Shown: in pieces, positions 259 through 27,618 of the stretch | How the letters are laid out: every line of letters begins with the position of its first letter | Position numbering within the stretch: the first letter of the stretch is position 1 | Assembly: GCA_047651235.1 (NCBI GenBank) | Contig: CP178758.1 | Location: 2,370,001-2,402,000 of the forward strand | Source of the DNA: Candidatus Electrothrix yaqonensis | GTDB taxonomy: Bacteria > Desulfobacterota > Desulfobulbia > Desulfobulbales > Desulfobulbaceae | Reading direction: 5' to 3' | DNA: 32,000 bases | The notes under the pieces: model-generated | Seen by the model: the letters and a program-made list of their open reading frames with translations, nothing else | Database searches by the model: none | What the model was told of the DNA's origin: nothing | Translations under genes and position numbers: made by a program

Positions 259-1020
259 TTATTCCGTCCCTGTCAGCAGGGTGTTCAGCAGCTGCTCCGG
301 CGCATTATTCAAATTTTCCTGCACCGTAATAATTGTCTGCTCCGCCCGTTCTGCCCGGCGCACCGCAGCAGAATCCGGGAAAAAAGCCACCGGACGCTCG
401 CCCAGTTCCTGTTCAAGAAACTCCTGATCTTCCGCATTCTGAACCAGGTTGCCGACAAAATAAATGCGGGGAATCCGAACATCCTCGGCCATTTTCCTGA
501 TTTTCAGGGCGGTCCGGATACCTGAGCGGGAGGGGATCACCACGATCAGCAGACAGTCAACCCCGGCCACTGTGCCCCGGCCCAGATGCTCCACCCCGGC
601 CTCCATATCCACCAGCACGGTTTCACCTGCGGTGAGCAGCATTTTTTTGAGCATCTTGCGTAGAACATGATTTTCCGGACAGGCGCAGCCGCCTTCGGCT
701 GTCTGCACAGCCCCCAGAATCATGAGCCGGATACCGTCCTGTTCCAGCGTAAAATCCCGCAGCAGGTCATTGACCTCCGGGTTGAGGTTGTAGAACGGTG
801 ACCCCTGAGTTTTCCCGGCCCGTTCAGCCAGCAGTCTCCCCATTTCGGCAATGGGCCTGACCTTTTTCGCCGCAGTAATCCCCAGGGTTTCCGCCATGTG
901 CGGACTGGGATCGGCATCAATCACCAGGACTTTCCTGGCCTGTTTCTGCAGCTCCCCGGCCAGCAGGGCCATGATGGTTGTTTTTCCGACGCCGCCCTTG
1001 CCGCTGATTGCTATTTTCAT
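259..1020 (-). CDS. cooC: CooC/AcsF-type P-loop ATPase (Ni-insertion accessory protein family, MinD/ParA class)
   Basis: The N-terminal deviant Walker A is MKIAISGKGGVGKTT. An internal GGCACPEN contains the CXC metal-binding motif typical of CooC. The length is 253 aa. An AGGAGAAG Shine-Dalgarno sequence lies just upstream of the ATG at 1020. Confidence 0.8.
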   Translation of the reverse strand: MKIAISGKGGVGKTTIMALLAGELQKQARKVLVIDADPSPHMAETLGITAAKKVRPIAEMGRLLAERAGKTQGSPFYNLNPEVNDLLRDFTLEQDGIRLMILGAVQTAEGGCACPENHVLRKMLKKMLLTAGETVLVDMEAGVEHLGRGTVAGVDCLLIVVIPSRSGIRTALKIRKMAEDVRIPRIYFVGNLVQNAEDQEFLEQELGERPVAFFPDSAAVRRAERAEQTIITVQENLNNAPEQLLNTLLTGTE

Positions 1021-1159: not shown

Positions 1160-1873
1160 ATGCAGACAAACTATGCGAGCACTACTGCTGTTGATGCCAG
1201 AGCGCGGCAGGAGGCTTCAACGATTTTTCTGGCCAAGGTGTTTAACTGGATGGCTGTCGGGCTGGGGCTGACCGGGGCTGTTGCCTGGCTGACCGCAAAT
1301 ACCAGTCTGGCATCTGCCATTGCAAGTAGCGGGCTGTATTGGATACTGTTTCTTGTTGAAATAGGAATGGTTTTCTATCTGTCCGCCCGCATCGACAAGA
1401 TGGCACCGAGCACAGCTACCGGACTGTTTTTCGGCTATGCTTTTCTCAATGGCCTGACGCTGTCGATTATTTTTCTGATCTACACCAAAGAATCCATTGC
1501 CGGAACCTTCCTGGTTACTGCTGCGATGTTCGGGGGCATGTCGGTATACGGCATGGTGACCAAACGGGATCTCTCCGGTTTTGGCTCCTTTCTGTTTATG
1601 GGGCTGATCGGCATTATCCTTGCTTCGATCATCAACATCTTCATGCAGAGTTCAACCCTGTACTGGGCGATTTCCTTTATCGGGGTGGGAGTTTTTGTCG
1701 GCCTGACCGCCTATGATGTGCAGAAGATTAAAATGATGGGCGAGCAGGGAATTATGAGTCAGGGAGAAGGTGCTGTTCAGAAAGGAGCAATTATGGGTGC
1801 CTTGGCCCTGTACCTGGATTTCATCAACCTGTTTCTCATGCTGCTACGGTTCTTCGGCGGCGGGCGTGACTGA
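1160..1873 (+). CDS. Bax inhibitor-1/YccA family inner-membrane protein
   Basis: The 340-aa ORF (851-1873) overlaps cooC antisense. An in-frame ATG at 1160 is preceded by AGGAGGA (1143-1149). From that ATG the product (MQTNYAS...FLAKVFNWMAVGLGLTGAVAW...) is a polytopic membrane protein of about 237 aa with the BI-1/YccA N-terminal signature and a charged C-terminus. Confidence 0.85.
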   Translation: MQTNYASTTAVDARARQEASTIFLAKVFNWMAVGLGLTGAVAWLTANTSLASAIASSGLYWILFLVEIGMVFYLSARIDKMAPSTATGLFFGYAFLNGLTLSIIFLIYTKESIAGTFLVTAAMFGGMSVYGMVTKRDLSGFGSFLFMGLIGIILASIINIFMQSSTLYWAISFIGVGVFVGLTAYDVQKIKMMGEQGIMSQGEGAVQKGAIMGALALYLDFINLFLMLLRFFGGGRD

Positions 1874-2116: not shown

Positions 2117-5100
2117 TCATCGTCTTCCGCTCTCTGCCCAGTCCCGTGTCTCCCAGAGCGGGCAGTGCATGCGGATGCATTCCCGATTCGTCTGATACTG
2201 TGAACAGCGGACAGCTCTGTTCGCCGGAAGTTCGATACCGAAAAACTCTCCGGAAAGTCGGGCGACCTGAGTCAGGGCCAGCCAGGCTTCCCGCTGGCAG
2301 CAGCGGGCCCCGTTTATCCGGGCAATTTCCGTCATGATCCGGGCTGTAAACACCAAGGACTTCTGTCGGGCATCCGGGGCCAGAGGAGTACCCTCCAGGA
2401 TAAGGGAAGCGGCAATGCCTGCGCCGACAGCTGCGCCGCAGGTTCCCCAGAAGCCGCAGGCCCCGCCGGGTACGTTGCTGCCCCGGTCGATGCCGGTGGC
2501 GACCACATCACGGGATATTCTACCGCCGTTATTGCGGTAGGCCGTCAGAATAATACCGGGAACCATGCTGTGATGCTCCGGCCCGTGCATGGGCACAGCC
2601 GGATGACTGCGGATCAGGCTGAACAGACCGAGCAGGTCTTTTTCTTCGCTGTTCAGACAGATATTGCGGATAACGTCAATCCCTCCCTGCTGATGACAGG
2701 CATCACAGATAAAATGCCCGTTCACGCAGAAACAGCCTGTCATCCTGCTGCAGTCGCAGAAATGACAGCTTTTTTCCTCCTCCCGGTCACTCAGGTACTC
2801 CAGCTCGCCGCCGCAGACCATACAGTCGCTTAAATGACGGCTCAGCAGATTAACTGGGATAAGCGGGGCAATAGGCGGGGCAGAAACCTTTTTTTCCTGC
2901 GGCTTTGTTTCCGGGGCAGCACAGCAGCAGGAATCCTGTTCCACATTGAGGACTGTACCGGCATCATCAAGAACAAAGATCTGATCTCCCAGTGCCGCTG
3001 CTATTTCCGCAGGAAGCTCAACAGTACGGCCCCGTTCCAGCCGCTCACCAGAGGCGGTTTCCAGGATCGGTGACGGCCCCCGGTAGATGCAGCGCACCGG
3101 CTGTTTTTTTTCATAGTCATCGATCACTGCCGCTTTGCCAGCTTCATAGGTCAGAGAATAAAAACGGCTGCCGTCAAGCTCCCGGTACGGCGCGCGTTTA
3201 TGGAGAAAGACAGAGGAAAAACCGCAGTCTTCCAGCATGACGATCAGGTCGTCCTGCTGCATGGCCCCGCCCAGACACTCGCCCCGATACCTCCTGCTAT
3301 TTCTGACTGCTGCGGAAACCGGTCCGTCCGTGACCACATCCGCAACCACCAGACGGCCTCCGGGCTTGAGGACCCGCAGGATTTCCAGATAGGTTCTGCG
3401 CTTGTCCGGGCTGAGGTTAATGACGCAGTTGGAAATGACTACATCCGCTGCGGCATCATTCAGGGGGATTTCTTCCAGATAGCCTTTGTGGAACTCGATA
3501 TTATCGAATCCCAAATCCTTCACTACATCCCGTTTCGATTTGCGGGCAAGGTCCAGCATGGCATCGGTCATGTCAATGCCGTAGACCCGTCCGGTCGGCC
3601 CCACTGCAGCAGCAGCCAGAAAGCACTCCACCCCGCTGCCTGAACCGAGGTCCACCACGGTCTCTCCGTTCTGCGGCGCAGCATCTTTCACCGGACTGCC
3701 GCAGCCGTATGATTTCTGTTTTGCCTCTTCCGGGATATAATGCGCCGTATCAGCAGCAGGGGCAAAGGGATTGATGATTTCTTCATTGGCGCTGCGCGCT
3801 GCAGCACTGTAGAACTCCCGCACTGAAGCATGTCCGTCATGATCGGCCAGGGAGAGCAGGCAGTTGCAATGAGTCAGCCCGACCGAGCCGTCGGAGCCGT
3901 TTTCCGTGTCCGGGCAGTCATGGCGCACATCGCCCATGCGCAGGCGGAACAGGCCCTGATCCGGAGACTGCGTTGCCTGCTCAACAAGGAGCTGCAGGGC
4001 AAGCTGCTCATACAGAGCAAGATACGGATCATGCCCGGTCAGGCTGTGCCCTGTTGTCCAGGAATGATCCGGATCGCCGCCGCCAGTAATCAACGACAGG
4101 GGGCGCTGGTCCCAGCCCTGCACATCTTTCAGGCTGGCGGAACGGATATTTTTCAGGGTGACGTTGTTCTGCCAAACCTCGTCCAGCCCCTGTTCCAGAC
4201 TGCCGCAGACCAGTTCTTCACTGCCGATCAGGGCCGGGGAAGGATAAATTTTTCCATCAGGGCCGACAGCAAGGGATTCCCAGCCCATATTGCTCAGATC
4301 AAACCGGGTTCCGGGCACGGCAAAGACCTGGGCCTTCATGGCCTCCAGATTATCCATTTGCAGACTCAGCTCCCGGCACACCTCTGCTGTCCGAAGAATG
4401 CCGGTAAAAAGACGGAGAACCGGGACAAACTGCTCTGCCGTCCCTTTTCCCCGGATAAAATGATAGAGCAGATGTAGCCCGCCTGCTCCCAGAGCATGGG
4501 CCTGCCGGGCAGTCTCCTCCAGCCTGCTGATATTCTCTCTGTTGACAGCCACTGACACGGTGAACTGCAGGCCTTCCTGTGCCGCTGCCTGAAGATTTTC
4601 GCACAGTTTTCTGTAGGAACCCTGTCCCCGGAGGGCATCGTGCTCTTTCTCCGGCCCGTCCAGACTGACCTGCAGGTGCAGCCGTTCCGTATCCAACCGT
4701 AGCAGCTCGTGCATCTGCTCCTGCAGGAGCAGACCGTTGGTCAGCACGGCCACATGATGGGCCGGATTCTGTTCCAGGATATATTGCATGATCCGGCAGA
4801 AATCAGGATAAACAAAGGGCTCGCCGCCGGTAAACGAAAAAAGACGGCTGCCCAGCGCCGCTGCCTGATCAATAGCAGCATAGAGCTGCTGCGGTTCCAG
4901 TGCGTTTTTTTGTGCCGGAGAGGAAGAAAAAAGGCAATGCCTGCAGGCGAGATTACAGGTGTCGGTCAGGTGAAACCAAATTTCCTTCAACGGGCCGGGG
5001 CGCAGATAATGCGCGCGTCCGAGATACGGCGCTGGTTCTTCGCGGTAAAGGAGATGCTGCAGCCGCCGGAGGTCACGCCAGACCCGGTCCGGTTCTTCCT

Positions 5101-5284
5101 GTGCCTGACAGCAGAAATCCGCCACTGCAGCCGCCTGATCATTATGTTGCCGGCAGGCCCTGAGCAGCTGGTCAGTCCGGGAAGAGGGAACAAACCAGTC
5201 AGGTCGTGCCTGATCAACATAAACCGGCAGTCCGGCGTGTTCCAGCCGGTGCAGGCGGGTGAGCCATCGCATGGAGGTGTTCAT
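2117..5284 (-). CDS. Three-module fusion protein: radical SAM domain with a Cys-depleted SPASM-like region, an ArsM/AS3MT-like SAM methyltransferase module, and a Cys/His-rich DUF5714-like C-terminal domain
   Basis: Residues about 95-440 carry HLTDTCNLACRHCLF (CX3CX2C at C110/C114/C117) and FTGGEPF. Residues about 485-790 align by eye along the whole of AS3MT/ArsM: VREFYS...SYGCGSP...VVDLGSGSGVECF...GRVYGIDMT...VVISNCVINLSPDK...LKPGGRLVVADV...RGECLGGA...RFYSLTYEA...VRCIYRG, followed by a CCC tail. Residues about 815-1045 carry CMVCGG..CHFCDC..CFCVNGHFICDACH..MHGPEHH..VPGGACGFWGTCGAAVGAG..RCCQRE..ECIRMHCP, which I recognise as the DUF5714 pattern. The whole is a single uninterrupted 1055-aa ORF. 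Confidence 0.85.
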   Translation of the reverse strand: MNTSMRWLTRLHRLEHAGLPVYVDQARPDWFVPSSRTDQLLRACRQHNDQAAAVADFCCQAQEEPDRVWRDLRRLQHLLYREEPAPYLGRAHYLRPGPLKEIWFHLTDTCNLACRHCLFSSSPAQKNALEPQQLYAAIDQAAALGSRLFSFTGGEPFVYPDFCRIMQYILEQNPAHHVAVLTNGLLLQEQMHELLRLDTERLHLQVSLDGPEKEHDALRGQGSYRKLCENLQAAAQEGLQFTVSVAVNRENISRLEETARQAHALGAGGLHLLYHFIRGKGTAEQFVPVLRLFTGILRTAEVCRELSLQMDNLEAMKAQVFAVPGTRFDLSNMGWESLAVGPDGKIYPSPALIGSEELVCGSLEQGLDEVWQNNVTLKNIRSASLKDVQGWDQRPLSLITGGGDPDHSWTTGHSLTGHDPYLALYEQLALQLLVEQATQSPDQGLFRLRMGDVRHDCPDTENGSDGSVGLTHCNCLLSLADHDGHASVREFYSAAARSANEEIINPFAPAADTAHYIPEEAKQKSYGCGSPVKDAAPQNGETVVDLGSGSGVECFLAAAAVGPTGRVYGIDMTDAMLDLARKSKRDVVKDLGFDNIEFHKGYLEEIPLNDAAADVVISNCVINLSPDKRRTYLEILRVLKPGGRLVVADVVTDGPVSAAVRNSRRYRGECLGGAMQQDDLIVMLEDCGFSSVFLHKRAPYRELDGSRFYSLTYEAGKAAVIDDYEKKQPVRCIYRGPSPILETASGERLERGRTVELPAEIAAALGDQIFVLDDAGTVLNVEQDSCCCAAPETKPQEKKVSAPPIAPLIPVNLLSRHLSDCMVCGGELEYLSDREEEKSCHFCDCSRMTGCFCVNGHFICDACHQQGGIDVIRNICLNSEEKDLLGLFSLIRSHPAVPMHGPEHHSMVPGIILTAYRNNGGRISRDVVATGIDRGSNVPGGACGFWGTCGAAVGAGIAASLILEGTPLAPDARQKSLVFTARIMTEIARINGARCCQREAWLALTQVARLSGEFFGIELPANRAVRCSQYQTNRECIRMHCPLWETRDWAESGRR

Positions 5285-5548
5285 AAACAGCCTGTTGTTA
5301 GCGAAATATTAAGGTGCGGTGCAGCTACTCTCAGCCTTTGCCGAACTGACAGAGCTGCGTATTTATTTCAGTATTTATTCTATAATCATGTCCGTATTGT
5401 ACGGGTTTTGTCCAGCTGCCCGCAACTCTATTTCCTGAATTCGTATAGTACGACTTGTTCCTATATAATTTTGCAGGCCCATTTTCGTTTTTTAAGTGGT
5501 TGTTATTGGGAGCTTGGAAGCTATTTAGGAACAACTATAGTAAAAAAG

Positions 5549-5689
5549 ATGTCGTGTACCGAGGAACAGCAACATCTGACAGAACAAGCAATCATGCGAG
5601 TAGCCAACCCAATATACGACGTTGTTTTCAAATTCCTGATGGGCGACATGCGCATTACCAAACTCTATGCTGACAGCTTCGGCGGCTGA
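5549..5689 (+). pseudogene. Possible 46-codon remnant of a PD-(D/E)XK-nuclease-family (transposase-like) gene N-terminus
   Basis: The short ORF MSCTEEQQHLTEQAIMRVANPIYDVVFKFLMGDMRITKLYADSFGG* contains ANPIYDVVFKFLM-D-RI. From memory this resembles the conserved N-terminus (ANPIYDxxFKYLMED-R-AK) of a widespread PD-(D/E)XK family. It ends after about 30 residues of similarity, has no clear RBS and sits in an AT-rich intergenic region. Confidence 0.25.
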
Positions 5690-5792
5690 TTTTTTTCGAT
5701 TTTTTTTCGGAAGGTATCTTTCGGGGGAGCAGCGGGCGGTCTGTAGAACTGGCCGCATTATTTTACAGATCAGATTGATCCTATCCTCAAAC

Positions 5793-5830
5793 AAAAACGG
5801 CAGCCTGACTTTGGTCGGGCTGCCGTTTTT
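5793..5830 (-). terminator. Rho-independent terminator after the symporter operon (bidirectional architecture)
   Basis: A 10-bp perfect stem, AACGGCAGCC (5796-5805) and GGCTGCCGTT (5818-5827), is flanked by an A-run on one side and a T-run on the other. It lies 35 nt downstream of the symporter stop at 5863. Confidence 0.8.
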
Positions 5831-5862
5831 GTCTCTCTTCTTAGAAGAAAACGAAACAGATT

Positions 5863-7617
5863 TTACCGCTTGACGATACCGGGCACTCGGATGTCTTCAA
5901 CCAGATGCTGAATATGCTCAGGCGGCTCCGGAGTAATGCGGGAGACCAGATACGCAACGGCAAAGTTCACCACCGCACCGACTGCACCGAAGGCTTCCGG
6001 TGAAATTTCGAGGAACCAGTTTTCAGCAATATTTTCAGCCATTGCAGTTCCAGGGATAAAGAACCAGCCTTTGAACCAGAAAATATAGACTAGGGTGATG
6101 CCCAGACCGGACAGCATTCCGCAGACTGCGCCGATGTTGTTGACCCGCTTGACAAAGATCCCCATCATCAGAGCCGGGAAAATAGAGGAAGCAGCCAGGC
6201 CGAAGGCCAGAGCCACAACCTGAGCGGCAAATCCCGGAGGATTGAGGCCGAAATATCCGGCCACGGCAATGGCACCGGCCATGGCAATCCGACCGGCCAG
6301 CAGCTCGGACTTATCGCTCATATCTTTCATGACAATGCCCTTGAGCAGATCATGGGAGATGGAGGAAGAAATGGCAAGGAGCAGGCCCGCAGCCGTAGAC
6401 AGGGCTGCGGCAATACCACCGGCAGCTACCAGGGCGATAACCCAGTTGGGCAGTTTGGCGATCTCCGGGTTGGCCAGAACCATAATATCCCGGTCTACTT
6501 TGACCATTTCATTTTCCGCACCGGCATAGTTAGGGCCGACATACTGAATTCTGCCGTCGCCGTTTTTGTCCTCATGTTGCAGCAGACCGGTTTTTTCCCA
6601 GTTCTTGAACCATTGCGGACGATCCTCATATTTGATCCACTCTCTCTCGTTCTGCTGGGCAGCCTGAGCTGTTTTGGTGGGACGAATAGTTTCCATCAGG
6701 TTCAGTCGCGCCATAGCACCGACCGCAGGAGCCGTGGTGTAGAGGATGGCGATAAAGACCAGCGACCAGCCCACGGAAGAGCGGGCATCCTTTACCTTGG
6801 GCACCGTAAAAAAACGGGTGATAACGTGGGGAAGACCGGCTGTACCGATCATTAAGGTCATGGTGTACAGAAAAATATTCAGAGTGGTGCCCTTCTGCGC
6901 CGTATACTGACCGAAACCGAGATCAACCAGAGTCTTGTCCAGTTTATCCAGCAGGAACATACCAGAGCCGTCGGTCATTTCCGCGCCCAGACCGAGCTGG
7001 GGCAGCGGATTACCGGTGAGCTGCAGCGAGATAAAGACCGCAGGTACGGTATAGGCAAAGATCAGCACGCAGTACTGGGCAATCTGGGTATAGGTAATGC
7101 CCTTCATTCCGCCCATAACCGCATAGACAAAAACAATGACCATGCCTACGCCCAGCCCTACTTCATACTTCAACTCAAGAAAGCGGGAAAAGGCCACGCC
7201 GATACCCTTCATCTGACCGATAACATAGGTCAGCGAGGCCACGATCAGGCAGATGACCGCAACAACACGGGCGATGTTGGAATAATAACGGTCACCGATA
7301 AATTCGGGCACAGTGAACTTTCCGTACTTCCGCAGGTAGGGGGCCAAAAGCATGGCCAACAGGCAGTAACCGCCGGTCCAGCCCATCAGGAACACAGAGG
7401 CGTCATAGCCCCCGAAGGCGATCATCCCGGCCATAGATATAAACGAGGCAGCAGACATCCAGTCAGCACCGGTGGCCATACCGTTGAGCACCGGATGCAC
7501 ACCCTTGCCGGCAACGTAGAACTCACCCGTTGAACCGGCCCGAGCCTTGATGGCAATAAAGATATACAGGGCAAAGGTGGCGCCAACCACCAGGTAGGTC
7601 ATTAATTTTAAGTCCAT
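5863..7617 (-). CDS. Sodium:solute symporter family permease, large subunit (ActP-like, VC_2705-type subfamily)
   Basis: The product is a 584-aa polytopic membrane protein. Its N-terminus, ...GEFYVAGKGVHPVLNGMATGADWMSAASFISMAGMIAFGGYD, is typical of SSF/ActP-like carriers. It lies immediately downstream of a DUF4212 small-subunit gene. Confidence 0.85.
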   Translation of the reverse strand: MDLKLMTYLVVGATFALYIFIAIKARAGSTGEFYVAGKGVHPVLNGMATGADWMSAASFISMAGMIAFGGYDASVFLMGWTGGYCLLAMLLAPYLRKYGKFTVPEFIGDRYYSNIARVVAVICLIVASLTYVIGQMKGIGVAFSRFLELKYEVGLGVGMVIVFVYAVMGGMKGITYTQIAQYCVLIFAYTVPAVFISLQLTGNPLPQLGLGAEMTDGSGMFLLDKLDKTLVDLGFGQYTAQKGTTLNIFLYTMTLMIGTAGLPHVITRFFTVPKVKDARSSVGWSLVFIAILYTTAPAVGAMARLNLMETIRPTKTAQAAQQNEREWIKYEDRPQWFKNWEKTGLLQHEDKNGDGRIQYVGPNYAGAENEMVKVDRDIMVLANPEIAKLPNWVIALVAAGGIAAALSTAAGLLLAISSSISHDLLKGIVMKDMSDKSELLAGRIAMAGAIAVAGYFGLNPPGFAAQVVALAFGLAASSIFPALMMGIFVKRVNNIGAVCGMLSGLGITLVYIFWFKGWFFIPGTAMAENIAENWFLEISPEAFGAVGAVVNFAVAYLVSRITPEPPEHIQHLVEDIRVPGIVKR

Positions 7618-7628
7618 CAGTTCTCTCC

Positions 7629-7886
7629 TCAGTCTTCCTGAACACCGAATTTACGATCCAGCTGATTCATACGCCACGCATAAAAAAAGATGAGTATGAC
7701 AAAGCTGTAGATTGAGCCCTGCTGGGCAAACCAGAAACCGAGCGGATATCCTCCCAGGATATGAATACTGTTCAATACCGGAGCCAGGAGTATCCCGCAA
7801 CCGTAGGACACGATAAACCAGACAATGAGACATCCGATCACCAGACGGATGTTCGCTTTCCAGTATGCCTGCGAATTCTTGTTCAT
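7629..7886 (-). CDS. DUF4212 small membrane subunit of the sodium:solute symporter
   Basis: I start the gene at the internal ATG (MNKNSQAYWKANIRLVIGCLIVWFIVSYG...GFWFAQQGSIYSFVILIFFYAWRMNQLDRKFG), which is preceded by GAGGAGG. The product has two TM helices and its stop lies 11 nt before the large-subunit start. The upstream extension to 7922 is unlikely. Confidence 0.8.
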   Translation of the reverse strand: MNKNSQAYWKANIRLVIGCLIVWFIVSYGCGILLAPVLNSIHILGGYPLGFWFAQQGSIYSFVILIFFYAWRMNQLDRKFGVQED

Positions 7887-8195
7887 ACAACCTCCTCTGT
7901 TTGTTATTTTGATGGACAGCAATGCTGTCTGGACCTCAGGGTCAGTCCCGTAGGTCTTCTGCAGCTTCAGGGACGGAGCAGTGTTTATTCGTCTGTTATT
8001 GTTGTTTACGATTTTTTCTCAGAAGGGACACATAGTAGGGTTTTGTTACCCGCCTGCATTCCGGAGTTTCACTCTATTTCTACAAGATAGACCCGAAACA
8101 GACAACACGCTCCGCAGAAAACGTAACAGCTTTTATACTTTTCCCGCAGGCTGCTGTCAAGACGGAAGGTGAGAAAGTAACAGCTCAGCTGCTGT

Positions 8196-8900
8196 TCAGC
8201 TGCGGATACGACCGGCCCGATACAGGTCCCTGAGGGTATTGATTCCGCCGTATCGGAATTTTTTCAGCAGGTATAAAAAAAGATAGGCTGTCTGCAGAGC
8301 ATCTTCCAGAGCGTCATGGGGTTTAAAGACCGGCAGACCGAATTCCTGGCTCAGAGCATCAAGGGTATAGGAGGATGCCTGATCATGATGGCCGTAATGA
8401 TCGGTTATTCCGCTATCCTGATATCTGCGGGCGAGCCGCATGGTATCGATACTGGGATTGGACAGTATCCCGCTGAAAACTCTGCAGGCTGTTTTATTGA
8501 GGAAATGCATATCCAGACCGACAAAATGGCCCACCAGCAGACTGTCGCTGCAGAATTCGATAAACTGCGGCAGTACTTCTTCTGCCGGAGCTGCCTGTTT
8601 GAGCTGCTCCGGGGTAATCCGATGCACCAGGGTGGCCTTGTTGGGCTGGATATCAGCAGGCCGGATATGCCGGTGAAAGGTCTGATCAAGCTCGATCTGC
8701 AGATTGACAAGCCGGACCGCGCCGATGGAGATGATTTCGTCCTTGCGTCTGTTCAGGCCGGTCAGTTCGGTGTCAAAAACTACAAAGGTATAGCTGTTCA
8801 GCGGACGTCCCTGATCAAAACCGGAAAATAGTTCCCGGTTTTTGCGGAGAGCAGGATGGAGAGGAGAGGGAGAAAAAAAGCGCCGGAAAATATTCAGCAT
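8196..8900 (-). CDS. DEDDh 3'-5' exonuclease (DNA polymerase III epsilon-like domain protein)
   Basis: Exo I is FVVFDTELTGL, Exo II is VGHFVGLDMHFLN and Exo III is HDALEDALQTAYLF. It lies 12 nt downstream of the DUF294 gene. Confidence 0.8.
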   Translation of the reverse strand: MLNIFRRFFSPSPLHPALRKNRELFSGFDQGRPLNSYTFVVFDTELTGLNRRKDEIISIGAVRLVNLQIELDQTFHRHIRPADIQPNKATLVHRITPEQLKQAAPAEEVLPQFIEFCSDSLLVGHFVGLDMHFLNKTACRVFSGILSNPSIDTMRLARRYQDSGITDHYGHHDQASSYTLDALSQEFGLPVFKPHDALEDALQTAYLFLYLLKKFRYGGINTLRDLYRAGRIRS

Positions 8901-8912
8901 ATTGTACTTTGC

Positions 8913-10838
8913 TCAGGCAGCCGGAAACATTGTTTTCAGGACGCCGTGCAGCCGGTCAATGACCTCAAAGGCATCCCGGAGCATCTGTTTTTCCAGCCCT
9001 GAGAGTTTATCCGGAGAAATATGGTTGTCCGGCTGCAGACCCGCCTCAAGCTGGTGGAGCTGATGAATAATCCGGAGCAGCATCTGCATTTCATAGGCAT
9101 CAGCCGCCTCGGCCCAGAGTTCTTCATGGAGAATATTTTCCTGGGCAAGCACATGCAGGCGGGCCAGGGTATTGGTCTCCCGGACGTTGTAGCGCAGGGC
9201 CAGAACCCGGGCAAAATTGACAAAAGGCGTCAGCCCCTGCAGTTTGATATCCAGCTTATTCTTATGTTCACCGTCCTTTTCCACAATGAAATTTCTGAAA
9301 AAGGACAACGGCGTCCTGTTGGCCAGACATTGATTGGCCAGATGCAGCAAATACACTTCCTCCCGCTCCGTGAGGGCGTTCAGATACTGACGCAGTTCAT
9401 CGGCAAGGCAGGCCCTGCCGAATCCGGCCCGGAAATCAAAAAAGATAGCAGCATTCAGTAGTTCCTGCGGATCAGGGGTAGAAACCCAGGCGTCAAAATA
9501 TTTTCTCCAGACAGAAAACGGCTGACACCATTTCGGGTTGACCGCCATGATTTCTCCCGGACAGAGCGGGTAGCCGCATTCCACCAGATGATCAATGGCC
9601 TTGCGGGCAAAGCAGGCAAAATACTCTTCAGCAGCCCGGCGCTGCTGTTCATCTGCCGGGTCTTCGTACAGGATCGCATTATCCTGGTCGGTTTTAAAGG
9701 TCTGCTCCCGCCGCCCCTCGGATCCCAGAAGAAGCCAGCAGTACGGAACCGGCGGTTCCCCCAACTCCATCTCAAGCAGGGTCAGCAGCCGTTCCAGAAT
9801 TTGATCGTTGAGAATGGAAATCATCCGGGAAATATTGCCCGCCTTGGCTCCTTCCTTGATCAGATTGCGGATGATTCCCGGAATCTTTCTGGAAAGCGGA
9901 TACAGCCCGGCAATTGTCCGCTGTTTGCCGATTTCCTTGAACAAGGAATAGGGGGAAATCCCCTGCAGCAGAGCAATGTCATGCGAGGTGACGATTCCTG
10001 TAATCTTTCCACGCCGCTCCACGGCAATATGGTGGATGGAGGAGGACATCATCTTCAGCAGGGCGTCAAAACAAGTTGACTGGGACAGCAGCGTGCAGAC
10101 CGGTGAGGACATGATCCGGGAAACCGGTTCGGTATACGCAAGCCCCGGAGCAAGCACTTTGCCGGTCAGATCCCGGTCCGTGATGATGCCGATAATATTT
10201 TTCGTATCATCAGGTTGGTGAATAAGTAGGGAGCTGATCCGGAATTCAGCCATCTTCTGGGCAGCCTGCTGAATGGTGCTGTCTGCGGGAATTGTCCGCA
10301 GAGGTTTGTTGATGACATCACCGACCTGCATGGAAAACAGATAAAGATTTTCCTCGCCGCGACGGGTCATTTTATGCCTGCGCAGTTCCGCATACGCGTT
10401 GACCACGAATTTTTCCGAGAAACTTTTCAGGTAATACTGGGAAAAGCCGGGCTGCGTATTGATCAGGTCAAGAAAGACAGCTTTGGGCAGGAGAAAGCAA
10501 AAGGTATCTTCGACGGTTTCAACATGCAGAGTGGCTTTGGTGTCCCGGATCAGACCGAGCGCCCCGATATAGTCTCCTTCGCCCCGGTAGTCTTTCAGCG
10601 TAACTTCACCTTCGTCGTCAACGATAAAGGATTTTGCTCCGCCCTGCTGAATAAGATATAGGTGGGTAATTTCGGTTTCACCGGCATGGAGCATCCGGGT
10701 TCCTTTCGGAAAAAAATCCACTTTCACGTGCCGAGCTACCCTGCTGAGGGTCTCGTGATCAAGCTCGTTAAACGGCATGATCTTCGCCAGAAATTCGATG
10801 ACGATCTCCGGCGCCGGTGAATGTACGTCTGCTGTCAT
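8913..10838 (-). CDS. Cyclic-nucleotide-binding / tandem CBS / DUF294 putative nucleotidyltransferase protein
   Basis: The N-terminal cNMP-binding-like beta-roll is FFPKGTRMLHAGE...LYLIQQGG. Two CBS-like segments follow (...IITDRDL..., ...GIVTSHDI...). The nucleotidyltransferase core is LLGSEGRREQTFKTDQDNAILY, followed by a helical substrate-binding-type C-terminus. The length is 641 aa. Confidence 0.8.
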   Translation of the reverse strand: MTADVHSPAPEIVIEFLAKIMPFNELDHETLSRVARHVKVDFFPKGTRMLHAGETEITHLYLIQQGGAKSFIVDDEGEVTLKDYRGEGDYIGALGLIRDTKATLHVETVEDTFCFLLPKAVFLDLINTQPGFSQYYLKSFSEKFVVNAYAELRRHKMTRRGEENLYLFSMQVGDVINKPLRTIPADSTIQQAAQKMAEFRISSLLIHQPDDTKNIIGIITDRDLTGKVLAPGLAYTEPVSRIMSSPVCTLLSQSTCFDALLKMMSSSIHHIAVERRGKITGIVTSHDIALLQGISPYSLFKEIGKQRTIAGLYPLSRKIPGIIRNLIKEGAKAGNISRMISILNDQILERLLTLLEMELGEPPVPYCWLLLGSEGRREQTFKTDQDNAILYEDPADEQQRRAAEEYFACFARKAIDHLVECGYPLCPGEIMAVNPKWCQPFSVWRKYFDAWVSTPDPQELLNAAIFFDFRAGFGRACLADELRQYLNALTEREEVYLLHLANQCLANRTPLSFFRNFIVEKDGEHKNKLDIKLQGLTPFVNFARVLALRYNVRETNTLARLHVLAQENILHEELWAEAADAYEMQMLLRIIHQLHQLEAGLQPDNHISPDKLSGLEKQMLRDAFEVIDRLHGVLKTMFPAA

Positions 10839-10862: not shown

Positions 10863-12308
10863 TCATGTGTGCAGACCGGTTCTCTTCCGGATCAGCATCT
10901 GCAGGAAATTCTGGAATGTTCCGATATTCCTGTACCTGGCGCTCATAGCCCGGCTGACGTTGTTGTAGTTGACCGGAATCTCCACCACTCGCATCCTGTG
11001 ATTGAGCATTTCCAAAATCATTTCCGCAGAAAACTCCGGTCCGGCAGCAGTCAGCCGGGGGCGGACAGCGTCATACGATGTCCGCCAGACCGCCCGGAAT
11101 GTACAGCCGACATCTGTAAAACGCCCTTCAAAACGCCACCAGAGCAGTTCCATGAGTTTGGCAAGAAAAACATTGGCCAGCCGGACAGGACCCTCCAGAT
11201 CAGTCCGCTGCTCCATCATCTGCCGGGTGGTCCGGGTGCCGACAACCATATCCGCCTCTTTCATATAGGCAAGGAGCTTGTCCAGATCCCTAGCCGGAAA
11301 AGCATAATCAGCTTCTGTCAGGATCAGGATATCAGCCTCTGTCCGGTCAAAGGCGTATTTGATTTTTTCTCCGTACAGATCACATCCCCGAGGGCAGCGG
11401 ATGATCTGAATACCATGCCGTTCCCCGATTTGTTCAATCGTATTCTTTTCAGGGACAATGAGATACATATCGTCCAGCTGCTGTACCGCCTTCCTGTACC
11501 GTTCAATTGCAAAGCCCACATTTTCCTCAGTGCCTTCACTGTAGATCAGCAGAGCCTTTCTCTGTCGGCTGAACTGAGAGCTGCGCTCGTAGAATTTGGC
11601 CCGGCTCAGGGAGTCCCGGTCATTAATGTTGACATAGCTGCCGCTCAGCCGAAACGGCAAAACAGTTCTGCCCTCTCGGCACTGCCCGTCGAGGAAGGAA
11701 ACAAATTCAACATATTCTTTTTCAGCTTGTCTGAATTCCTCCTCAAGCAGGGGGAAAATCTCCGGCGAAAAGACAAAGGTGCCGCAACCGAGGATATCGT
11801 TGTCAATCTGCGTCGGTTTTTCAATGAGTTCTGTTATCCTGTCATCCTGAACCCGGACGGCATAGTTTTTCCGGATCAGTTCCCTGTCATCCACCTGTTT
11901 CAACGCACAGACCGCAAACGCCTCCCTGAAATTAACCGCTTTCAGCTGCTGGTGATTGGAATCCACATAGCATTCATCAGAGAGGATTACACAGAAATAA
12001 TCATCAATGATTTCCTGGCCCAGGAGGATTGACCAAGCCAGCCCCTTGTCCAGCTCTGTATTATGGATATAATGCAGCGTGACACCGAGTTGTTCGCCGC
12101 TGCCGAAAGTCTCCCTGATTATCCCGGAAAGATATCCTGTTATGATAACAATCTCGGTTATGCCGAGCTGATCACGCATCAGCTCAATATTCCGCTGCAG
12201 ATTGGGCACACCGTTGATCTGCAGCATGCTTTTGGGCAGCGCCTTGGTGTACGGTCTGGCACGGGTGCCTTTACCGGCCGCCGGGATAAGACCATAAAGT
12301 TTACTCAT
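10863..12308 (-). CDS. Bifunctional sugar-phosphate nucleotidyltransferase / family-2 glycosyltransferase-like protein
   Basis: The N-terminus, LIPAAGKGTRARPYTKALPKSML, is the G-x-G-T-R NTP-transferase signature. The C-terminal half (...ILILTEADYAFPARDLDKLLAYM...VVGTR...FTDVGCTFRA...) resembles a GT-A/GT2 fold. Its start overlaps the stop of the upstream GT2 gene (12305-12308). Confidence 0.7.
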   Translation of the reverse strand: MSKLYGLIPAAGKGTRARPYTKALPKSMLQINGVPNLQRNIELMRDQLGITEIVIITGYLSGIIRETFGSGEQLGVTLHYIHNTELDKGLAWSILLGQEIIDDYFCVILSDECYVDSNHQQLKAVNFREAFAVCALKQVDDRELIRKNYAVRVQDDRITELIEKPTQIDNDILGCGTFVFSPEIFPLLEEEFRQAEKEYVEFVSFLDGQCREGRTVLPFRLSGSYVNINDRDSLSRAKFYERSSQFSRQRKALLIYSEGTEENVGFAIERYRKAVQQLDDMYLIVPEKNTIEQIGERHGIQIIRCPRGCDLYGEKIKYAFDRTEADILILTEADYAFPARDLDKLLAYMKEADMVVGTRTTRQMMEQRTDLEGPVRLANVFLAKLMELLWWRFEGRFTDVGCTFRAVWRTSYDAVRPRLTAAGPEFSAEMILEMLNHRMRVVEIPVNYNNVSRAMSARYRNIGTFQNFLQMLIRKRTGLHT

Positions 12309-13000
12309 GTTTTCTTTTCCGAAGCCGGAATTGTCACGGCATACCAGATCAGCAGGCCGAGATACTTCACTGTTTCGCCAAGATGACGCATTTTGGACTG
12401 CCCGGTTTGTCGGGGACGGAAATCCACCGGGATTTCATGGATGGTTATTCCCTTTTTCGCTAGGCGGGCCGCGACTTCAAGAACATGCTCAAAACCGTTC
12501 CGTTCCATGGGCAGCCCGCTGACAACCTGTCGTCTGAATCCTTTGGAACCGGTGTACAAGTCTGTAACCTGCTGGCGAAAAAGCAGATTAAATGCCCCGG
12601 ATATTATTTTATTGCCCAGCATTTTCATGTATCCCATCCTGTCCCGGTTGCGGTCGTCAAGAAAGCGAGAAGTGTACACAACCTCATGTCGGTCAAGTTC
12701 CTGGACAAGAAGGGGAATCGCCTCAGGAGGATATTCGCAGTCAGCATCAATGATGATAATTTTCCCGGCCCGGGCAGCACGGATGCCGTCCCGCAACGAG
12801 GCCCCGTATCCTTGGTTTGTTTCATGCCGGATAATCGTTACCTCCTTGAAGTTCTCTATAATTTCAAGGGAATTATCCGTAGAGGCATTATCGATAAAAA
12901 TAAGACGGTACTCCGGGCCAAGCGCAGTGACCCGTCTGTGGAATTCATGCAGCCCGTCCTGTTCGTTAAATACCGGGACAATAATATCCGTAATATCCAT
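12305..13000 (-). CDS. Glycosyltransferase family 2 (Dpm1/polyprenyl-phosphate sugar transferase-like)
   Basis: Motifs are IIVPVFNEQDGL, LIFIDNASTDNS, IIIIDADCEYPPE and a C-terminal basic/amphipathic end. The length is 231 aa. Confidence 0.8.
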   Translation of the reverse strand: MDITDIIVPVFNEQDGLHEFHRRVTALGPEYRLIFIDNASTDNSLEIIENFKEVTIIRHETNQGYGASLRDGIRAARAGKIIIIDADCEYPPEAIPLLVQELDRHEVVYTSRFLDDRNRDRMGYMKMLGNKIISGAFNLLFRQQVTDLYTGSKGFRRQVVSGLPMERNGFEHVLEVAARLAKKGITIHEIPVDFRPRQTGQSKMRHLGETVKYLGLLIWYAVTIPASEKKT

Positions 13001-13095
13001 AATGTCAGGTGTATATTTATCCTCTGTCAGCCCACGTTGTCGGTTGCAGTTCTATCCGATATCCTGCCCGGTATCGGCATAATCTGACTGAAGAT

Positions 13096-14064
13096 TCACT
13101 CCGGTTCATTCTTTCGCCCGGTTTGTTTTTTACCGGTTTTGCTTCCTTGGCTTTTCGCCTTGTTCGGGGTCTGGCGGGAAACCGGCTTTGCCGCCTGCCA
13201 CTGTTCTTCGGTCATCATCAGTTCGCCTTTCTCGCGGGAGATGGCCAGCACCTTGCCCTGCAGGGCAAAGACCCGGACCACCCGGTACACTTCCCCCTCA
13301 TAGTTCAGCAGGCGCCCGACACGGGGCATTTCCCGTTTTATCGCCTTGTAGTTCTCCACCTCATAGGTCAGGCAGCAGAGCAGACGGTTGCAGACACCGG
13401 AAATCTTGGCCGGGTTCAGGGGTAGATCCTGGGTTTTTGCCATTTTGATGGAAACAGAATCGAATTTGTGCAGAAATGAGCTGCAGCACAGCTCCCGGCC
13501 GCAGGCCCCGATCCCGCCGGTCATCTTGGTTTCATGGCGCACGCCGATCTGCCGCATTTCCACTCTGGTCCGGAACTCCTGGACCAGGTCTTTGACCAGC
13601 TCCCGAAAATCCACCCGGTGTTCCGCAGTGAAATAAAAGATGACTTTGGAGCCGTTAAAAAAGCGTTCTACCCGCACCAGATGCATGCTCAGGCCATGTT
13701 GTGCAATACGTTTTCTGCAGAAGGCCGCAGCCTGCTGCTCTTGCACCGGCAGATAGGCATATTTTTTCTGTTCCTCGGAAGTGGCCGGACGGATAATGGT
13801 ATAGGAACAGCCGCGTTCCATGTCCGGTTCAACAGGCCCTGCCGCACGACTGACAATGGCCGCAGGCTCAGGACAATGGTCTGTTTCGACCAGCACCACA
13901 TCTCCTCCGGTCAGATCAGCGATATTGCTCCGGGCAGTGAATTCCGGCCCCTGCTCGCGGAAGCGGAGCCGATAATAATACAGCCTGCTCTCTGCCTGGT
14001 TGCCCTTTTTCTGCTGCCCGCTGGAGGCTTCTTTTTCATGTTGCTGTTCTTTTGTTTCAGTCAT
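13096..14064 (-). CDS. PSP1 domain protein (YaaT/RicT-like)
   Basis: The PSP1 C-terminal signature is GACGRELCCSSFLHKFDSVSIKMAKTQDLPLNPAKISGVCNRLLCCLTYE. Its position directly after holB matches the Bacillus holB-yaaT arrangement. Confidence 0.85.
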   Translation of the reverse strand: MTETKEQQHEKEASSGQQKKGNQAESRLYYYRLRFREQGPEFTARSNIADLTGGDVVLVETDHCPEPAAIVSRAAGPVEPDMERGCSYTIIRPATSEEQKKYAYLPVQEQQAAAFCRKRIAQHGLSMHLVRVERFFNGSKVIFYFTAEHRVDFRELVKDLVQEFRTRVEMRQIGVRHETKMTGGIGACGRELCCSSFLHKFDSVSIKMAKTQDLPLNPAKISGVCNRLLCCLTYEVENYKAIKREMPRVGRLLNYEGEVYRVVRVFALQGKVLAISREKGELMMTEEQWQAAKPVSRQTPNKAKSQGSKTGKKQTGRKNEPE

Positions 14065-16936: not shown

Positions 16937-17488
16937 CTAACCCTCAAAACTATCCGCATACAACTTTTCAATAGCCTCCCTGCCCTCATCACTCAGATAT
17001 CGGGTGCCTGAACCGACATAGGTATCAAAGGAAATCTTCGGACTTTCCTCCTGCTGCCAGCTCTCATTCTTCCAGGTAAACCAGCTGTTGCGGTTCTGGT
17101 CGTACACATGCAGAGGCCGGTTGAACAGTTTAGCCAGCTCCACGGCCCAGCCGGTTCCGCCTTTCACCGAATTATCCTCAAGAATGGTGCCGACAACAAA
17201 TACTTGGTGGCCCTTGTTGACCATGTGAAAAATAGCCTGCAGAACCCGGCGGATTTTTTCGGTTTCATAATAGGTGCGGTTCATCATCCTTGAAGCGATC
17301 TCCATGCTGATGTCTCCCCGCTGCAGCTCCTCCTCGCTCAGGGAAACAGCGTTGCGGTCCCGGTTGAGACGATGACCTTCAAAGGTGAAAATCACCTCAT
17401 TAATCCCGTATTGTTCCGCATATTCGCCGAATACGCTCTCTGCCCCTTTGAGGCCGCCATGATATAATGTGCATTCTTCCGCCTTCAT
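16937..17488 (-). CDS. Hypothetical LOG/SLOG-superfamily Rossmann-fold protein
   Basis: The 183-aa product has an N-terminal YHGGLKGAESVFGEYAEQYG, which is glycine-rich loop-like. It also has VFVVGT...VKGGTGWAVELAKLFNRPLHVYD, which resembles the PGGxGTxxE / GGT...A...gkPv motif of LOG, DprA and YpsA-type SLOG domains. A GAGGTGA RBS precedes the ATG. The assignment is by motif resemblance only. Confidence 0.45.
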   Translation of the reverse strand: MKAEECTLYHGGLKGAESVFGEYAEQYGINEVIFTFEGHRLNRDRNAVSLSEEELQRGDISMEIASRMMNRTYYETEKIRRVLQAIFHMVNKGHQVFVVGTILEDNSVKGGTGWAVELAKLFNRPLHVYDQNRNSWFTWKNESWQQEESPKISFDTYVGSGTRYLSDEGREAIEKLYADSFEG

Positions 17489-26770: not shown

Positions 26771-27618
26771 CAGCTGTCAAGCTCCAGCAGACGGTCGGCC
26801 AGGCGTTCGGCTGCAAAAACAAGGGATTCTAAGTCAAGAAACTCCAGGACATGCTGGTCAAACAAAATCTTCACACGGGCCTCGAAGCCATCCTCAGCAT
26901 CCTCATCCCAGAAGAGAAGATACAGGGGAACGTGGGGAAGAACAGGGATGATCAGGCCGATATCCGCGCTCTGCGTCTGCGCATCAGAATTTTCGGCTAT
27001 ACCGATCATGCGGCAGACCTCCGCCAGCCGCTCCGCCCGGCCGCTGAACCGCTCCGCCAGCCGCTGCTCGCAGTAGGTAGACAGAGTCCGTATCTTGGCT
27101 ATCGAATTCGGGAGGCTCTCCATCCCCACCCAAGTGTCGTCGGGAACATTGGAAGTATCGTTGCCGGAGCCGCCGCCAAAAGCAACATAATTATACAGCA
27201 GGATTTGGTCTCTGAGATCAGTAGGTTCCTGATCATTCAACACGACCTCAGCGCTGCTCAGGGAAACCTCCCGGCCAAGATAGACAAACCTGAGTTCCTC
27301 CGGCCTGTCAATCAACCAATCTACCCCCAGTCGCGGAGCGAGTTTCTGAAAGTCCAGAGGCTGCACCTTGGATTTCAGATGCGCAACCAGAGCCATATCG
27401 CGCTCGTTCTGCCCCCGGTCAACAGCATCAACTGCATCGAAGCCTGCTGTTTTCCCGGTGCCGAAATCTGCGGGCAACGCCTCTCTGTCCAGATACGGGC
27501 AGAGTTCAGGCGTGACACCGCCTTTGGTCACGGCAACAGCAAAGGCGAGGCAGGCTGCATAGCCGCACTTTCCGCAGTTGCTTGCCGGGATATATTTCAG
27601 AAATGCATGCGGCGTCAT
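26770..27618 (-). CDS. Fe-S-binding / DUF3786-like protein
   Basis: The N-terminus, NCGKCGYAACLAFAVAVTKGGVTPELCPY, gives CX2CX4CX16C, the [4Fe-4S] motif of RnfB/CFeSP-type N-terminal domains. The remaining roughly 230 aa resemble DUF3786 from memory. Its stop overlaps the hldA start (TGATG). Confidence 0.6.
   Translation of the reverse strand: MTPHAFLKYIPASNCGKCGYAACLAFAVAVTKGGVTPELCPYLDREALPADFGTGKTAGFDAVDAVDRGQNERDMALVAHLKSKVQPLDFQKLAPRLGVDWLIDRPEELRFVYLGREVSLSSAEVVLNDQEPTDLRDQILLYNYVAFGGGSGNDTSNVPDDTWVGMESLPNSIAKIRTLSTYCEQRLAERFSGRAERLAEVCRMIGIAENSDAQTQSADIGLIIPVLPHVPLYLLFWDEDAEDGFEARVKILFDQHVLEFLDLESLVFAAERLADRLLELDS

Follow-up and report, generated by a model that had tools for sequence, protein, structure and literature searches.

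What does a cell make with a single polypeptide that joins an enzyme of the radical S-adenosylmethionine (SAM) type, a methyltransferase of the arsenic-methylating ArsM type and a cysteine- and histidine-rich domain named only as DUF5714? The question is raised by a gene of Candidatus Electrothrix yaqonensis, which lies on the reverse strand at positions 2117 to 5284 of the stretch analysed here (the window, 32,000 nucleotides of contig CP178758.1). Our favoured answer, to which we would give a probability of roughly 0.45, is that the gene encodes a self-contained organoarsenical synthase, combining radical C-As bond formation with As-methylation. The domain identities, the conservation of catalytic residues and the links among relatives through fusions, split genes and neighbourhoods are directly supported and are presented first. 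From the N-terminus to the C-terminus, the fusion protein is divided as follows.

5000..5284, reverse strand: domain resembling PqqD and the RiPP recognition element (RRE; RiPP, ribosomally synthesised and post-translationally modified peptide), residues 1-95; three strands, then three helices in the AlphaFold2 (AF2) model
4325..4999, reverse strand: radical-SAM core, residues ~96-320, with C110-x3-C114-x2-C117 (nucleotides 4934-4957) and GGEPF at 153-157
3830..4324, reverse strand: degenerate SPASM-fold domain, residues ~321-485, ending in C457...H472-C473-N-C475
2921..3829, reverse strand: ArsM/AS3MT-type methyltransferase, residues 486-788, from phmmer against the Protein Data Bank (PDB), NCBIfam and Foldseek
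2837..2920, reverse strand: disordered linker of variable length, residues 789-816; predicted local distance difference test (pLDDT) <50, sequence and length both varying in the alignment
2687..2836, reverse strand: zinc-ribbon-like Cys/His module, residues 817-866; short beta hairpins in the AF2 model
2120..2686, reverse strand: DUF5714 helical domain, residues 867-1055 (Pfam PF18978)

The initial annotation had described one open reading frame (ORF) made of three modules, and this description was borne out: in the ORF listing of the window 2117..5284 (reverse strand) is unbroken, encodes 1055 aa from an ATG start and ends in a stop codon at 2117-2119, and Pfam matched Radical_SAM, Methyltransf_31 and DUF5714 alike. 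The motifs which it had quoted were searched for by script and every one was found where it had been placed, namely CNLACRHC at residue 110 (C110-x3-C114-x2-C117) and GGEP(F) at 153 in the radical-SAM part, YGCG at 526, DLGSGSG at 545, SNCVINL at 618, GECLGG at 668 and CCC at 786 in the methyltransferase, and HGPEHH at 900, GACGFWGTCGAAVGAG at 941 and RCCQRE at 994 in the C-terminal part. Translation probably begins at the ATG at 5272 (residue M5), since in the alignment of 118 homologues the other proteins begin at the residue aligned with M5.

Sequence comparison places the middle module in the ArsM clade. It carries the lid (VREFY), YGC528G, DLGSGSG, SNC620VINL, GEC670LGG, the C-terminal beta domain and a C786-C788 tail, and Methyltransf_31 and related Pfam models match residues 539-680 (E 4.5e-32). 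The best methyltransferase matches in the PDB were CrArsM (5evj, 3.8e-37) and CmArsM (4fr0, 9e-32), whilst the best generic, non-ArsM methyltransferase reached 1.4e-7, about 30 orders of magnitude weaker; a generic UbiE/Methyltransf_11 enzyme, the possibility against which the initial annotation had wished its proposal to be checked, was rejected on this basis. Foldseek likewise ranks ArsM/AS3MT structures first (5evj, 6cx6, 4fr0, 8xt7; E ~1e-18, target-normalised TM-score (TMt) 0.60-0.67), the C-terminal domain included, and the arsinothricin-ArsM model NF040538 aligns by its positions 168-355 of 356 to residues 609-787. The CmArsM residues Cys72, Cys174 and Cys224 have C528, C620 and C670 as their counterparts in the alignment; each of these three is invariant in the 118 homologues or conserved in at least 90% of them, and is kept down to 32% identity. 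A neighbour-joining tree, without bootstrap support, was built for the core of the methyltransferase; one of its bipartitions sets the 37 modules linked to a radical-SAM domain apart from 63 stand-alone ArsMs, save for one intruder.

The earlier wording, a full ArsM/AS3MT module, nevertheless claims too much. Membership of the ArsM clade, the equivalents of Cys72, Cys174 and Cys224 and the C-terminal domain all stood, but the equivalent of Cys44 is lost and the best NCBIfam family match, PRK11873, scores 224.8 bits against a cutoff of 263. The 'CC' at the Cys44 position has become I/V-N in the fusion clade; distant relatives (L016, P0301 and P0282) keep 'CC'. In CmArsM, Cys44 and Cys72 are needed to methylate As(III) but are dispensable for methylarsenite, MAs(III) (PMC6138428), and since the Cys44 equivalent is missing here and Cys44 is needed only for the As(III) step, the module should prefer an already alkylated arsenical over arsenite.

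The radical-SAM core, judged by its sequence, is active-looking: Pfam PF04055 (Radical_SAM) matches residues 106-261 (E 6.6e-23; 82.1 bits, cutoff 29.5), and C110, C114, C117 and T152-P156, including G153-G154-E155, are invariant in the 118 sequences. An AF2 model computed from these sequences (mean pLDDT 87.5, predicted TM-score (pTM) 0.74) was compared with solved structures, and residues ~1-480 superimposed best on CteB (5wgg/5why; TMt 0.73-0.77 over 463-475 columns), followed by SkfB, SuiB, anSME and PqqE (TMt ~0.70-0.73 for the last two). The best NCBIfam matches of residues 1-485 were Rv1681, MftC, StsB, ScmE/F, AlbA and AhbD, and the best 25 of 89 are all of SPASM, MoaA or heme type (E <=1.6e-15), far below the curated cutoffs. 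Neither TIGR04167 (ArsS) nor NF040542 (ArsL) is among these best 25, and orthology of this module to ArsS or ArsL was rejected for that reason.

In the model, the N-terminal domain has the beta3-alpha3 topology of an RRE, with strands at residues 11-16, 19-24 and 29-33 and helices at 35-46, 50-61 and 65-79 as assigned by DSSP (pLDDT >90), and a PDW-x-V motif whose W30, on strand 3, is invariant. The alignment to the StsB sactisynthase model begins at residue 23 of the fusion protein; the PqqD profile gave no Pfam match to this domain even at E up to 10. The domain behind the radical-SAM core is predicted to keep a SPASM-type fold without its cluster ligands. The seven-cysteine motif sought there was Cx9-15Gx4C ... 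Cx2Cx5Cx3C ... C, which provides the ligands of auxiliary [4Fe-4S] clusters, and in an alignment with the SPASM-intact proteins P0301, P0287, P0296 and P0319 all seven cysteines are replaced, the corresponding segments reading DLSN, YPSP, W..R and TGGGD with S, S, W, R, T and D standing at cysteine positions; PF13186 (SPASM) had no Pfam match in the fusion protein. Relatives as distant as 32% identity still have C457, H472 and C475 (H472-x-N-C475, just before the ArsM lid); conservation of C360 and C473, by contrast, does not extend beyond the Desulfobulbales clade, which weakens the case for a twitch-like auxiliary cluster on C360/C457/C473/C475. The initial annotation had likened the pairing to the ArsS and ArsL systems, and this likeness is good for the methyltransferase, of the ArsM clade, but not for its partner, a radical-SAM module of the RRE-SPASM-fold RiPP-maturase type that has lost the auxiliary cysteines.

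The third, Cys/His-rich module recognised at the outset proved to be a complete DUF5714 domain (PF18978 over residues 872-1044, model positions 1-173 of 173, E 2.6e-59; 200.1 bits, cutoff 26.2), with the qualification that a zinc-ribbon-like segment of ~50 aa, C821...H864, stands ahead of it. The putative ligands of this segment (C821, C824, C840, C843, C853, H857, C860, C863 and H864) are invariant or nearly so in the fusions and in stand-alone DUF5714 proteins. The key residues of DUF5714 itself are H900-GPE-H904-H905 with E903, C943 and C949 (GxCGFWGxCGA), R994-C995-C996-Q-R998, C1027, C1036 and C1041, and these residues (of the RCCQR motif, R994-C995-C996) are invariant in the stand-alone proteins also. 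The AF2 model of the combined zinc-ribbon and DUF5714 unit has a pLDDT of 90.6, and Foldseek found no match to it in the PDB at E <1.

A search with this unit returned 2068 protein clusters, mostly stand-alone proteins of ~230-255 aa from Firmicutes. The neighbours of stand-alone DUF5714 genes are heterogeneous (cysteine-desulfurase-like, acetyltransferase and Mo-hydroxylase genes among them) and gave no functional clue. In P0211, P0213 and P0232 (~358 aa) and P0186 (442 aa) the unit is part of domain fusions; it occurs joined to an ArsC-like low-molecular-weight phosphatase domain with a CxxNSCRS loop, for which arsenate reductase models give 66 bits, short of their cutoff, and in one protein to an acyl-CoA-dehydratase-type activase (BcrAD_BadFG). 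At locus L091 a DUF5714-ArsC-like fusion gene is followed by a DUF2703 gene. DUF5714 also forms the core of MbdU (NF045648), a computationally defined 'metal-binding double selenoprotein' in whose 'CU' motif the CC pair is C-Sec. The fusion protein scores 132 bits over positions 5-272 of the 468 of that model, which calls for at least 600 bits and two selenocysteines, and as its ORF holds no in-frame TGA it has no selenocysteine. The C_GCAxxG_C_C models also fall short (PF09719 17.3 bits, cutoff 27; TIGR01909 19.3 bits, cutoff 47.4) and touch the GxCGxxGxCGA region only. For DUF5714, C_GCAxxG_C_C and MbdU, no member with a function in the literature or with a solved structure was found.

The initial annotation has to be amended in that the fusion is no one-off: the family is widespread and conserved. 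Among ~5.8 billion proteins searched there are more than 115 full-length clusters, 50-70% identical and of the same Pfam architecture, the best of them ~70% identical to the fusion protein; their hosts are Candidatus Electrothrix, Desulfobulbus, Desulfocapsa, Desulfolithobacter and further Desulfobulbales, and they bear generic names only ('DUF5714 domain-containing', 'methyltransferase domain-containing'). When species-representative genomes were scanned, two cultured strains, Hydrosulfovibrio ferrireducens CB1MN and Desulfogranum japonicum DSM 18378, turned out to carry the three-module gene, as did metagenome-assembled genomes (MAGs) from Desulfobacteraceae, Eisenbacteria, Chitinivibrionales and Pirellulaceae; the lowest identity reached was 32%. 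The breadth of the family (the clusters together with 19 further loci of three-module architecture from several phyla) and the GC and GC3 (third codon position) contents, which are even over all three modules, rule out an assembly chimera or a frameshift; 20 independent loci and a split operon likewise show the fusion to be genuine.

In that operon a 475-aa radical-SAM gene is followed, after a gap of 16 nt, by a 561-aa gene for Methyltransf_31 plus DUF5714, and fusions of reversed order (methyltransferase, radical SAM, SPASM) occur as well. An exhaustive HMMER search with residues 1-485 retrieved only 119 representatives at E <=1e-30, which fall into three length groups of ~1000-1080 aa (three modules), ~780-850 aa (radical SAM plus methyltransferase) and ~450-520 aa (stand-alone radical SAM). 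By these comparisons the three modules are linked by fusion, fission and domain permutation, and they may be taken to belong together because of the shared architecture, the split operon, the reversed-order fusions and the clade which the fused methyltransferases form. The suggestion that such a fusion had gone undescribed held: among publications on DUF5714, on radical-SAM enzymes fused to ArsM and on the arsM genes of Desulfobulbales, none that describes the fusion protein was found.

Links to arsenic were found in the neighbourhoods of divergent relatives. At L010 and L011 the fusion gene is the last of an operon that also encodes TIGR04283 and TIGR04282 proteins, and at L013 such a pair divergently adjoins it; most of these proteins pass their curated cutoffs, and the NCBI name of both families is 'arsenosugar biosynthesis glycosyltransferase'. 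L011 further encodes a tandem rhodanese. In P0247 (L097, 6001-8844) a TIGR04283 domain takes the place of DUF5714 behind the radical-SAM and ArsM modules, in a gene within which the contig ends, and upstream of the reversed-order fusion P0296, overlapping it, is a TIGR04283 gene (249.8 bits), itself preceded by C_GCAxxG_C_C, flippase-like and DedA genes. ArsM is coupled to the radical-SAM module by fusion, and TIGR04282 or TIGR04283 adjoin or are fused only in the divergent L010, L011, L013, P0247 and P0296; within 10 kb of the 64 stand-alone ArsM loci neither family was found (0/64). The SPASM-intact fusion P0301 lies amid rhodanese, C_GCAxxG_C_C, CCG Fe-S and flippase-like genes, and in a Thermoanaerobaculia MAG (L016) a gene for a CobW-related G3E GTPase (12442-13593, forward strand) overlaps the stop codon of a two-module radical-SAM-ArsM gene, whose 843-aa product keeps a Cys44-like 'LCCP' motif. 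C_GCAxxG_C_C and DUF5714-type proteins are thus recurrent partners of radical-SAM-ArsM pairs, and the gene set overlaps a cassette which databases tie to arsenosugar synthesis. The arsenic reading gains independent support from the TIGR04282/TIGR04283 links together with the DUF5714-ArsC-like fusions.

Two distant SPASM-intact fusions of methyltransferase and radical SAM, at L099 (425-6014) and L098 (3378-5873), stand in cassettes with C_GCAxxG_C_C, flippase-like (LPG_synthase_TM), DedA/UptA-like, rhodanese, CCG Fe-S and Se_S_carrier genes. This set hints at a membrane-linked pathway related to sulfur or selenium which seems not to have been studied.

From the above we infer that arsenic is the substrate, and likewise in what order the steps follow, which type of radical acts and what DUF5714 does. 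In the organoarsenical synthase proposed, which would condense the two-protein systems ArsS/ArsM and ArsL/ArsM into one chain, trivalent arsenic would be captured on cysteine thiolates, for which the candidate sites are C995-C996 with neighbouring Cys/His residues of the zinc-ribbon and DUF5714 unit, the C787-C788 tail and C457/H472/C475. The radical-SAM module would reductively cleave SAM on a single [4Fe-4S] cluster, and a radical derived from SAM, which would most likely be 5'-deoxyadenosyl, the one that ArsS uses, would form the C-As bond. The ArsM module would then keep R-As(III) bound between C620 and C670 while C528 acts as redox partner, and would move a methyl group onto it from a second SAM. 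DUF5714 may provide either a hand-off site for the metalloid, at the vicinal C995-C996, or a redox relay by which catalytic disulfides are reduced again, an idea that fits the fusions of this domain to ArsC-like and activase domains.

Precedents exist for both types of radical chemistry. According to a 2025 review, all C-As bonds of bacterial organoarsenical natural products are made by the SAM-dependent ArsM, ArsS and ArsL, and ArsS and ArsL are separate proteins that work alongside ArsM (PMC12159101). ArsS adenosylates dimethylarsenite, DMAs(III), with 5'-deoxyadenosyl (PMC13598754), and ArsL transfers a 3-amino-3-carboxypropyl (ACP) radical onto As(III) bound by its C-terminal RCCLKC motif (bioRxiv 10.1101/2024.02.01.577332). 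In arsenosugar synthesis, for example in Synechocystis, ArsM makes DMAs(III) from As(III) and ArsS then adds 5'-deoxyadenosyl to give 5'-deoxy-5'-dimethylarsinoyl-adenosine (DDMAA). The system described here resembles this one in combining a radical-SAM enzyme with an ArsM-type methyltransferase and in having divergent fusion relatives within TIGR04282/TIGR04283 cassettes; it differs in being one polypeptide, in its radical-SAM module of the RRE plus SPASM-fold RiPP-maturase clade, in retaining three of the four canonical ArsM cysteines, in the additional zinc-ribbon and DUF5714 unit and in the lack of glycosyltransferases near the window gene. The arsinothricin pair, ArsL and ArsM, agrees with it in the proposed order of steps, since a radical C-As bond made first and methylation afterwards would suit an ArsM that lacks Cys44, and in placing a cysteine motif for As(III) outside the radical-SAM core, for which RCCQRE, C457/H472/C475 and the CCC tail are the candidates in the fusion protein. 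However, the RCC of the fusion lies inside the folded DUF5714 domain of 190 aa and that of ArsL in a short tail, and the ars-operon context of arsQML is absent at the fusion gene.

Taken module by module, the methyltransferase shares with canonical ArsM/AS3MT (CmArsM, CrArsM, human AS3MT) its fold, lid and C-terminal domain included, the YGCG, SNCV and GECLGG cysteines and the SAM loop, but it is flanked by two further modules and forms its own subclade, in addition to the missing Cys44 equivalent and the low PRK11873 score. With the CteB, SkfB, AlbA, MftC and PqqE maturases the N-terminal half has in common the RRE-radical-SAM-SPASM architecture, the fold of residues 1-480 and the best profile matches, but not the auxiliary-cluster cysteines or a precursor gene, and its scores are far below the cutoffs. 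Stand-alone DUF5714 proteins contain the same zinc-ribbon and DUF5714 unit with identical invariant Cys/His residues; to C_GCAxxG_C_C, whose genes adjoin the distant radical-SAM-methyltransferase fusions, the match is marginal (17-19 bits), and from MbdU the fusion protein is set apart by its want of selenocysteine. What appears to be new, by these sequence comparisons, is the pairing with ArsM of a different radical-SAM lineage, plus an uncharacterised third domain.

Should the organoarsenical synthase be confirmed, radical C-As chemistry would have arisen independently from a SPASM-type peptide-maturase scaffold, the large DUF5714/C_GCAxxG_C_C group would gain its first functional anchor, and sulfur-cycling anaerobes of sediments, cable bacteria included, would have to be counted among the candidates for making complex organoarsenicals under anoxia, in a field, anoxic arsenic methylation and speciation, that is still poorly understood. 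As all modules are in one gene, the idea can be tested with one expression construct.

Several findings weigh against such a synthase. RRE-like domains usually bind peptides, yet the fusion protein has one; its radical-SAM module is, by sequence, related to ArsS and ArsL at the superfamily level at most, and the best matches of that module are hydrogen-abstracting peptide or cofactor maturases. The ArsM module lies below every curated ArsM cutoff, those of the models other than PRK11873 being 240-575 bits. As the initial annotation had remarked of resistance genes, ars genes are missing nearby (0 among the 20 neighbouring gene products scanned in the window), nor does the window hold arsenosugar glycosyltransferases: a GT2 glycosyltransferase at 12305-13000 was considered as a TIGR04283 member and rejected at 44 bits against a cutoff of 182, and tblastn likewise gave no match for it and a nucleotidyltransferase as TIGR04283/TIGR04282 members. 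Close homologues, in an all-versus-all ORF comparison of 20 loci, have no conserved neighbour, no ars genes and no arsenosugar glycosyltransferases. No experimental work on the TIGR04282/TIGR04283 glycosyltransferases was found in the literature, so that 'arsenosugar biosynthesis' is a database name. Within the Desulfobulbales identity follows taxonomy, a pattern which looks like that of a housekeeping gene and not of a mobile arsenic trait, and the biochemistry of the family has so far been derived from sequences and models.

Other explanations have to be considered with these points in mind. Arsenic, or another metalloid, could be the substrate of a different chemistry, in which the ArsM module would add methyl groups to MAs(III) or As(III), either as a detoxification or so as to yield MAs(III), which is toxic, and the radical-SAM module, instead of forming a C-As bond, could cleave C-As bonds anaerobically (a demethylation analogous to that by the O2-dependent ArsI), supply electrons or regulate. 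The conserved cysteine triad of ArsM and the fusion of DUF5714 to ArsC-like domains would both agree with this, and anaerobes are not known to have the oxygen-dependent C-As lyase. Demethylation with arsI undetected has been described in methanogenic paddy soil (bioRxiv 10.64898/2026.08.27.747368). However, the Cys44 equivalent for the first methylation of As(III) is missing (PMC6138428), the family was never in ars operons among the loci examined, a methylase joined to a demethylase would be futile, and the glycosyltransferase, flippase-like and rhodanese links of relatives point to biosynthesis rather than to efflux-type detoxification; on balance we consider this chemistry unlikely. Arsenic may, on the other hand, play no part at all. 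In a RiPP-like maturase of peptides or proteins the RRE-like domain would dock a Cys-rich substrate, possibly the protein's own linker, its own DUF5714 domain or an unlinked precursor, for modification by the radical-SAM module and S- or C-methylation by the ArsM-derived methyltransferase. Such a function would account for the close superposition of the N-terminal half on CteB, for the MftC, StsB, AlbA and Scm maturases among the best family matches, and for the beta3-alpha3 topology with its invariant W30, but it would have to do so with all seven SPASM cluster cysteines lost, no PqqD profile match and no conserved small ORF or other neighbour that could be a cognate precursor or leader peptide in the 20 loci compared; the exact As(III)-binding cysteines of ArsM, needless for a peptide methylase, have been retained and relatives have arsenosugar-type glycosyltransferase links, and we regard a maturase of this kind as quite improbable.

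It is distinctly unlikely, in our estimation, that the protein serves another soft element (Se, Te, Sb, Hg, Ni) or the assembly of a metal cofactor, with the triad and DUF5714 as a scaffold on which two SAM chemistries build a ligand. DUF5714 as the core of MbdU with its C-Sec pair, the G3E GTPase gene at L016, the rhodanese, Se_S_carrier, C_GCAxxG_C_C and CCG Fe-S neighbours of relatives, the fusion of DUF5714 to an acyl-CoA-dehydratase-type activase and a stand-alone copy in a Mo-hydroxylase operon would all find a place there, but every one of these links is sporadic, the ArsM-clade enzymes with the cysteine triad are known for arsenic, and no metallochaperone or cofactor pathway is conserved beside the close homologues. 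It also seems rather doubtful that Desulfobulbales including the cable bacteria vertically keep a single-polypeptide pathway to a new organo-metalloid product, built from a cluster-less radical-SAM module of RiPP-maturase descent and, as a scaffold for the substrate, a zinc-ribbon and DUF5714 unit that would be a new fold for binding metals or metalloids. The product could then be a new arsenical, for instance an adenosyl- or alkyl-methylarsenical or an arsenolipid precursor, or even an As- or Se-modified peptide or cofactor, and the last of these could have a physiological and not a detoxifying role.

The surroundings of the fusion gene in the window agree with what was first reported of them. 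The gene converges with that of a BI-1 protein (Bax1-I, Bax-inhibitor; 1172-1873, forward strand), and the intergenic region upstream of it (5285-5862, ~580 bp) is AT-rich, with a GC content of ~42% as against ~57-60% within the gene. Two features were distinguished in this region.

5285..5790, reverse strand: AT-rich intergenic spacer, GC ~0.42, presumed to hold the fusion gene's own promoter
5791..5832, no strand assigned: strong hairpin terminator after actP, its 19-bp stem flanked on either side by T/A runs

The spacer contains one weak sigma-70-like match, at 5414-5385, and Rfam found in it no riboswitch or known RNA at gathering score, the remaining matches being of chance level. From its sequence, the hairpin is probably a bidirectional terminator that ends the upstream actP and insulates the fusion gene. 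A reading-frame tail of 46 aa (MSCTEEQQHLTEQAIMRVANPIYDVVFKFLMGD...; ~5550-5689, forward strand) lies in the same spacer and had no Pfam match; it resembles the N-terminus of Rpn/PD-(D/E)XK transposase-like proteins and may be a gene remnant, and as such could account for the AT-rich spacer.

Beyond the spacer, a cluster on the reverse strand (5863-10838) appears unrelated to the fusion gene; it includes a sodium:solute symporter (ActP-like), an RNase_T-type exonuclease, a small membrane protein judged DUF485/YjcH-like from sequence alone and a 641-aa protein judged by eye to be CBS/DUF294-like. On the other side, ~1.1 kb past the 3' end of the fusion gene and beyond Bax1-I, is a gene for a MinD/ParA/CooC-type P-loop ATPase (259-1020, reverse strand), which ArsA/GET3 and NifH-like models match weakly only and whose adjacency is not conserved in homologues. 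Two ORFs on the reverse strand, 16937-17488 (183 aa) and 31394-31915 (173 aa), matched nothing in Pfam at E up to 1e-5. The gene of a DDE transposase (PF13612/PF01609; 15332-16219, reverse strand) marks an insertion sequence within an otherwise housekeeping stretch, and the gene at 26770-27618 (reverse strand) encodes a DUF3786 protein with an N-terminal Fe-S motif resembling that of the corrinoid Fe-S protein gamma subunit.

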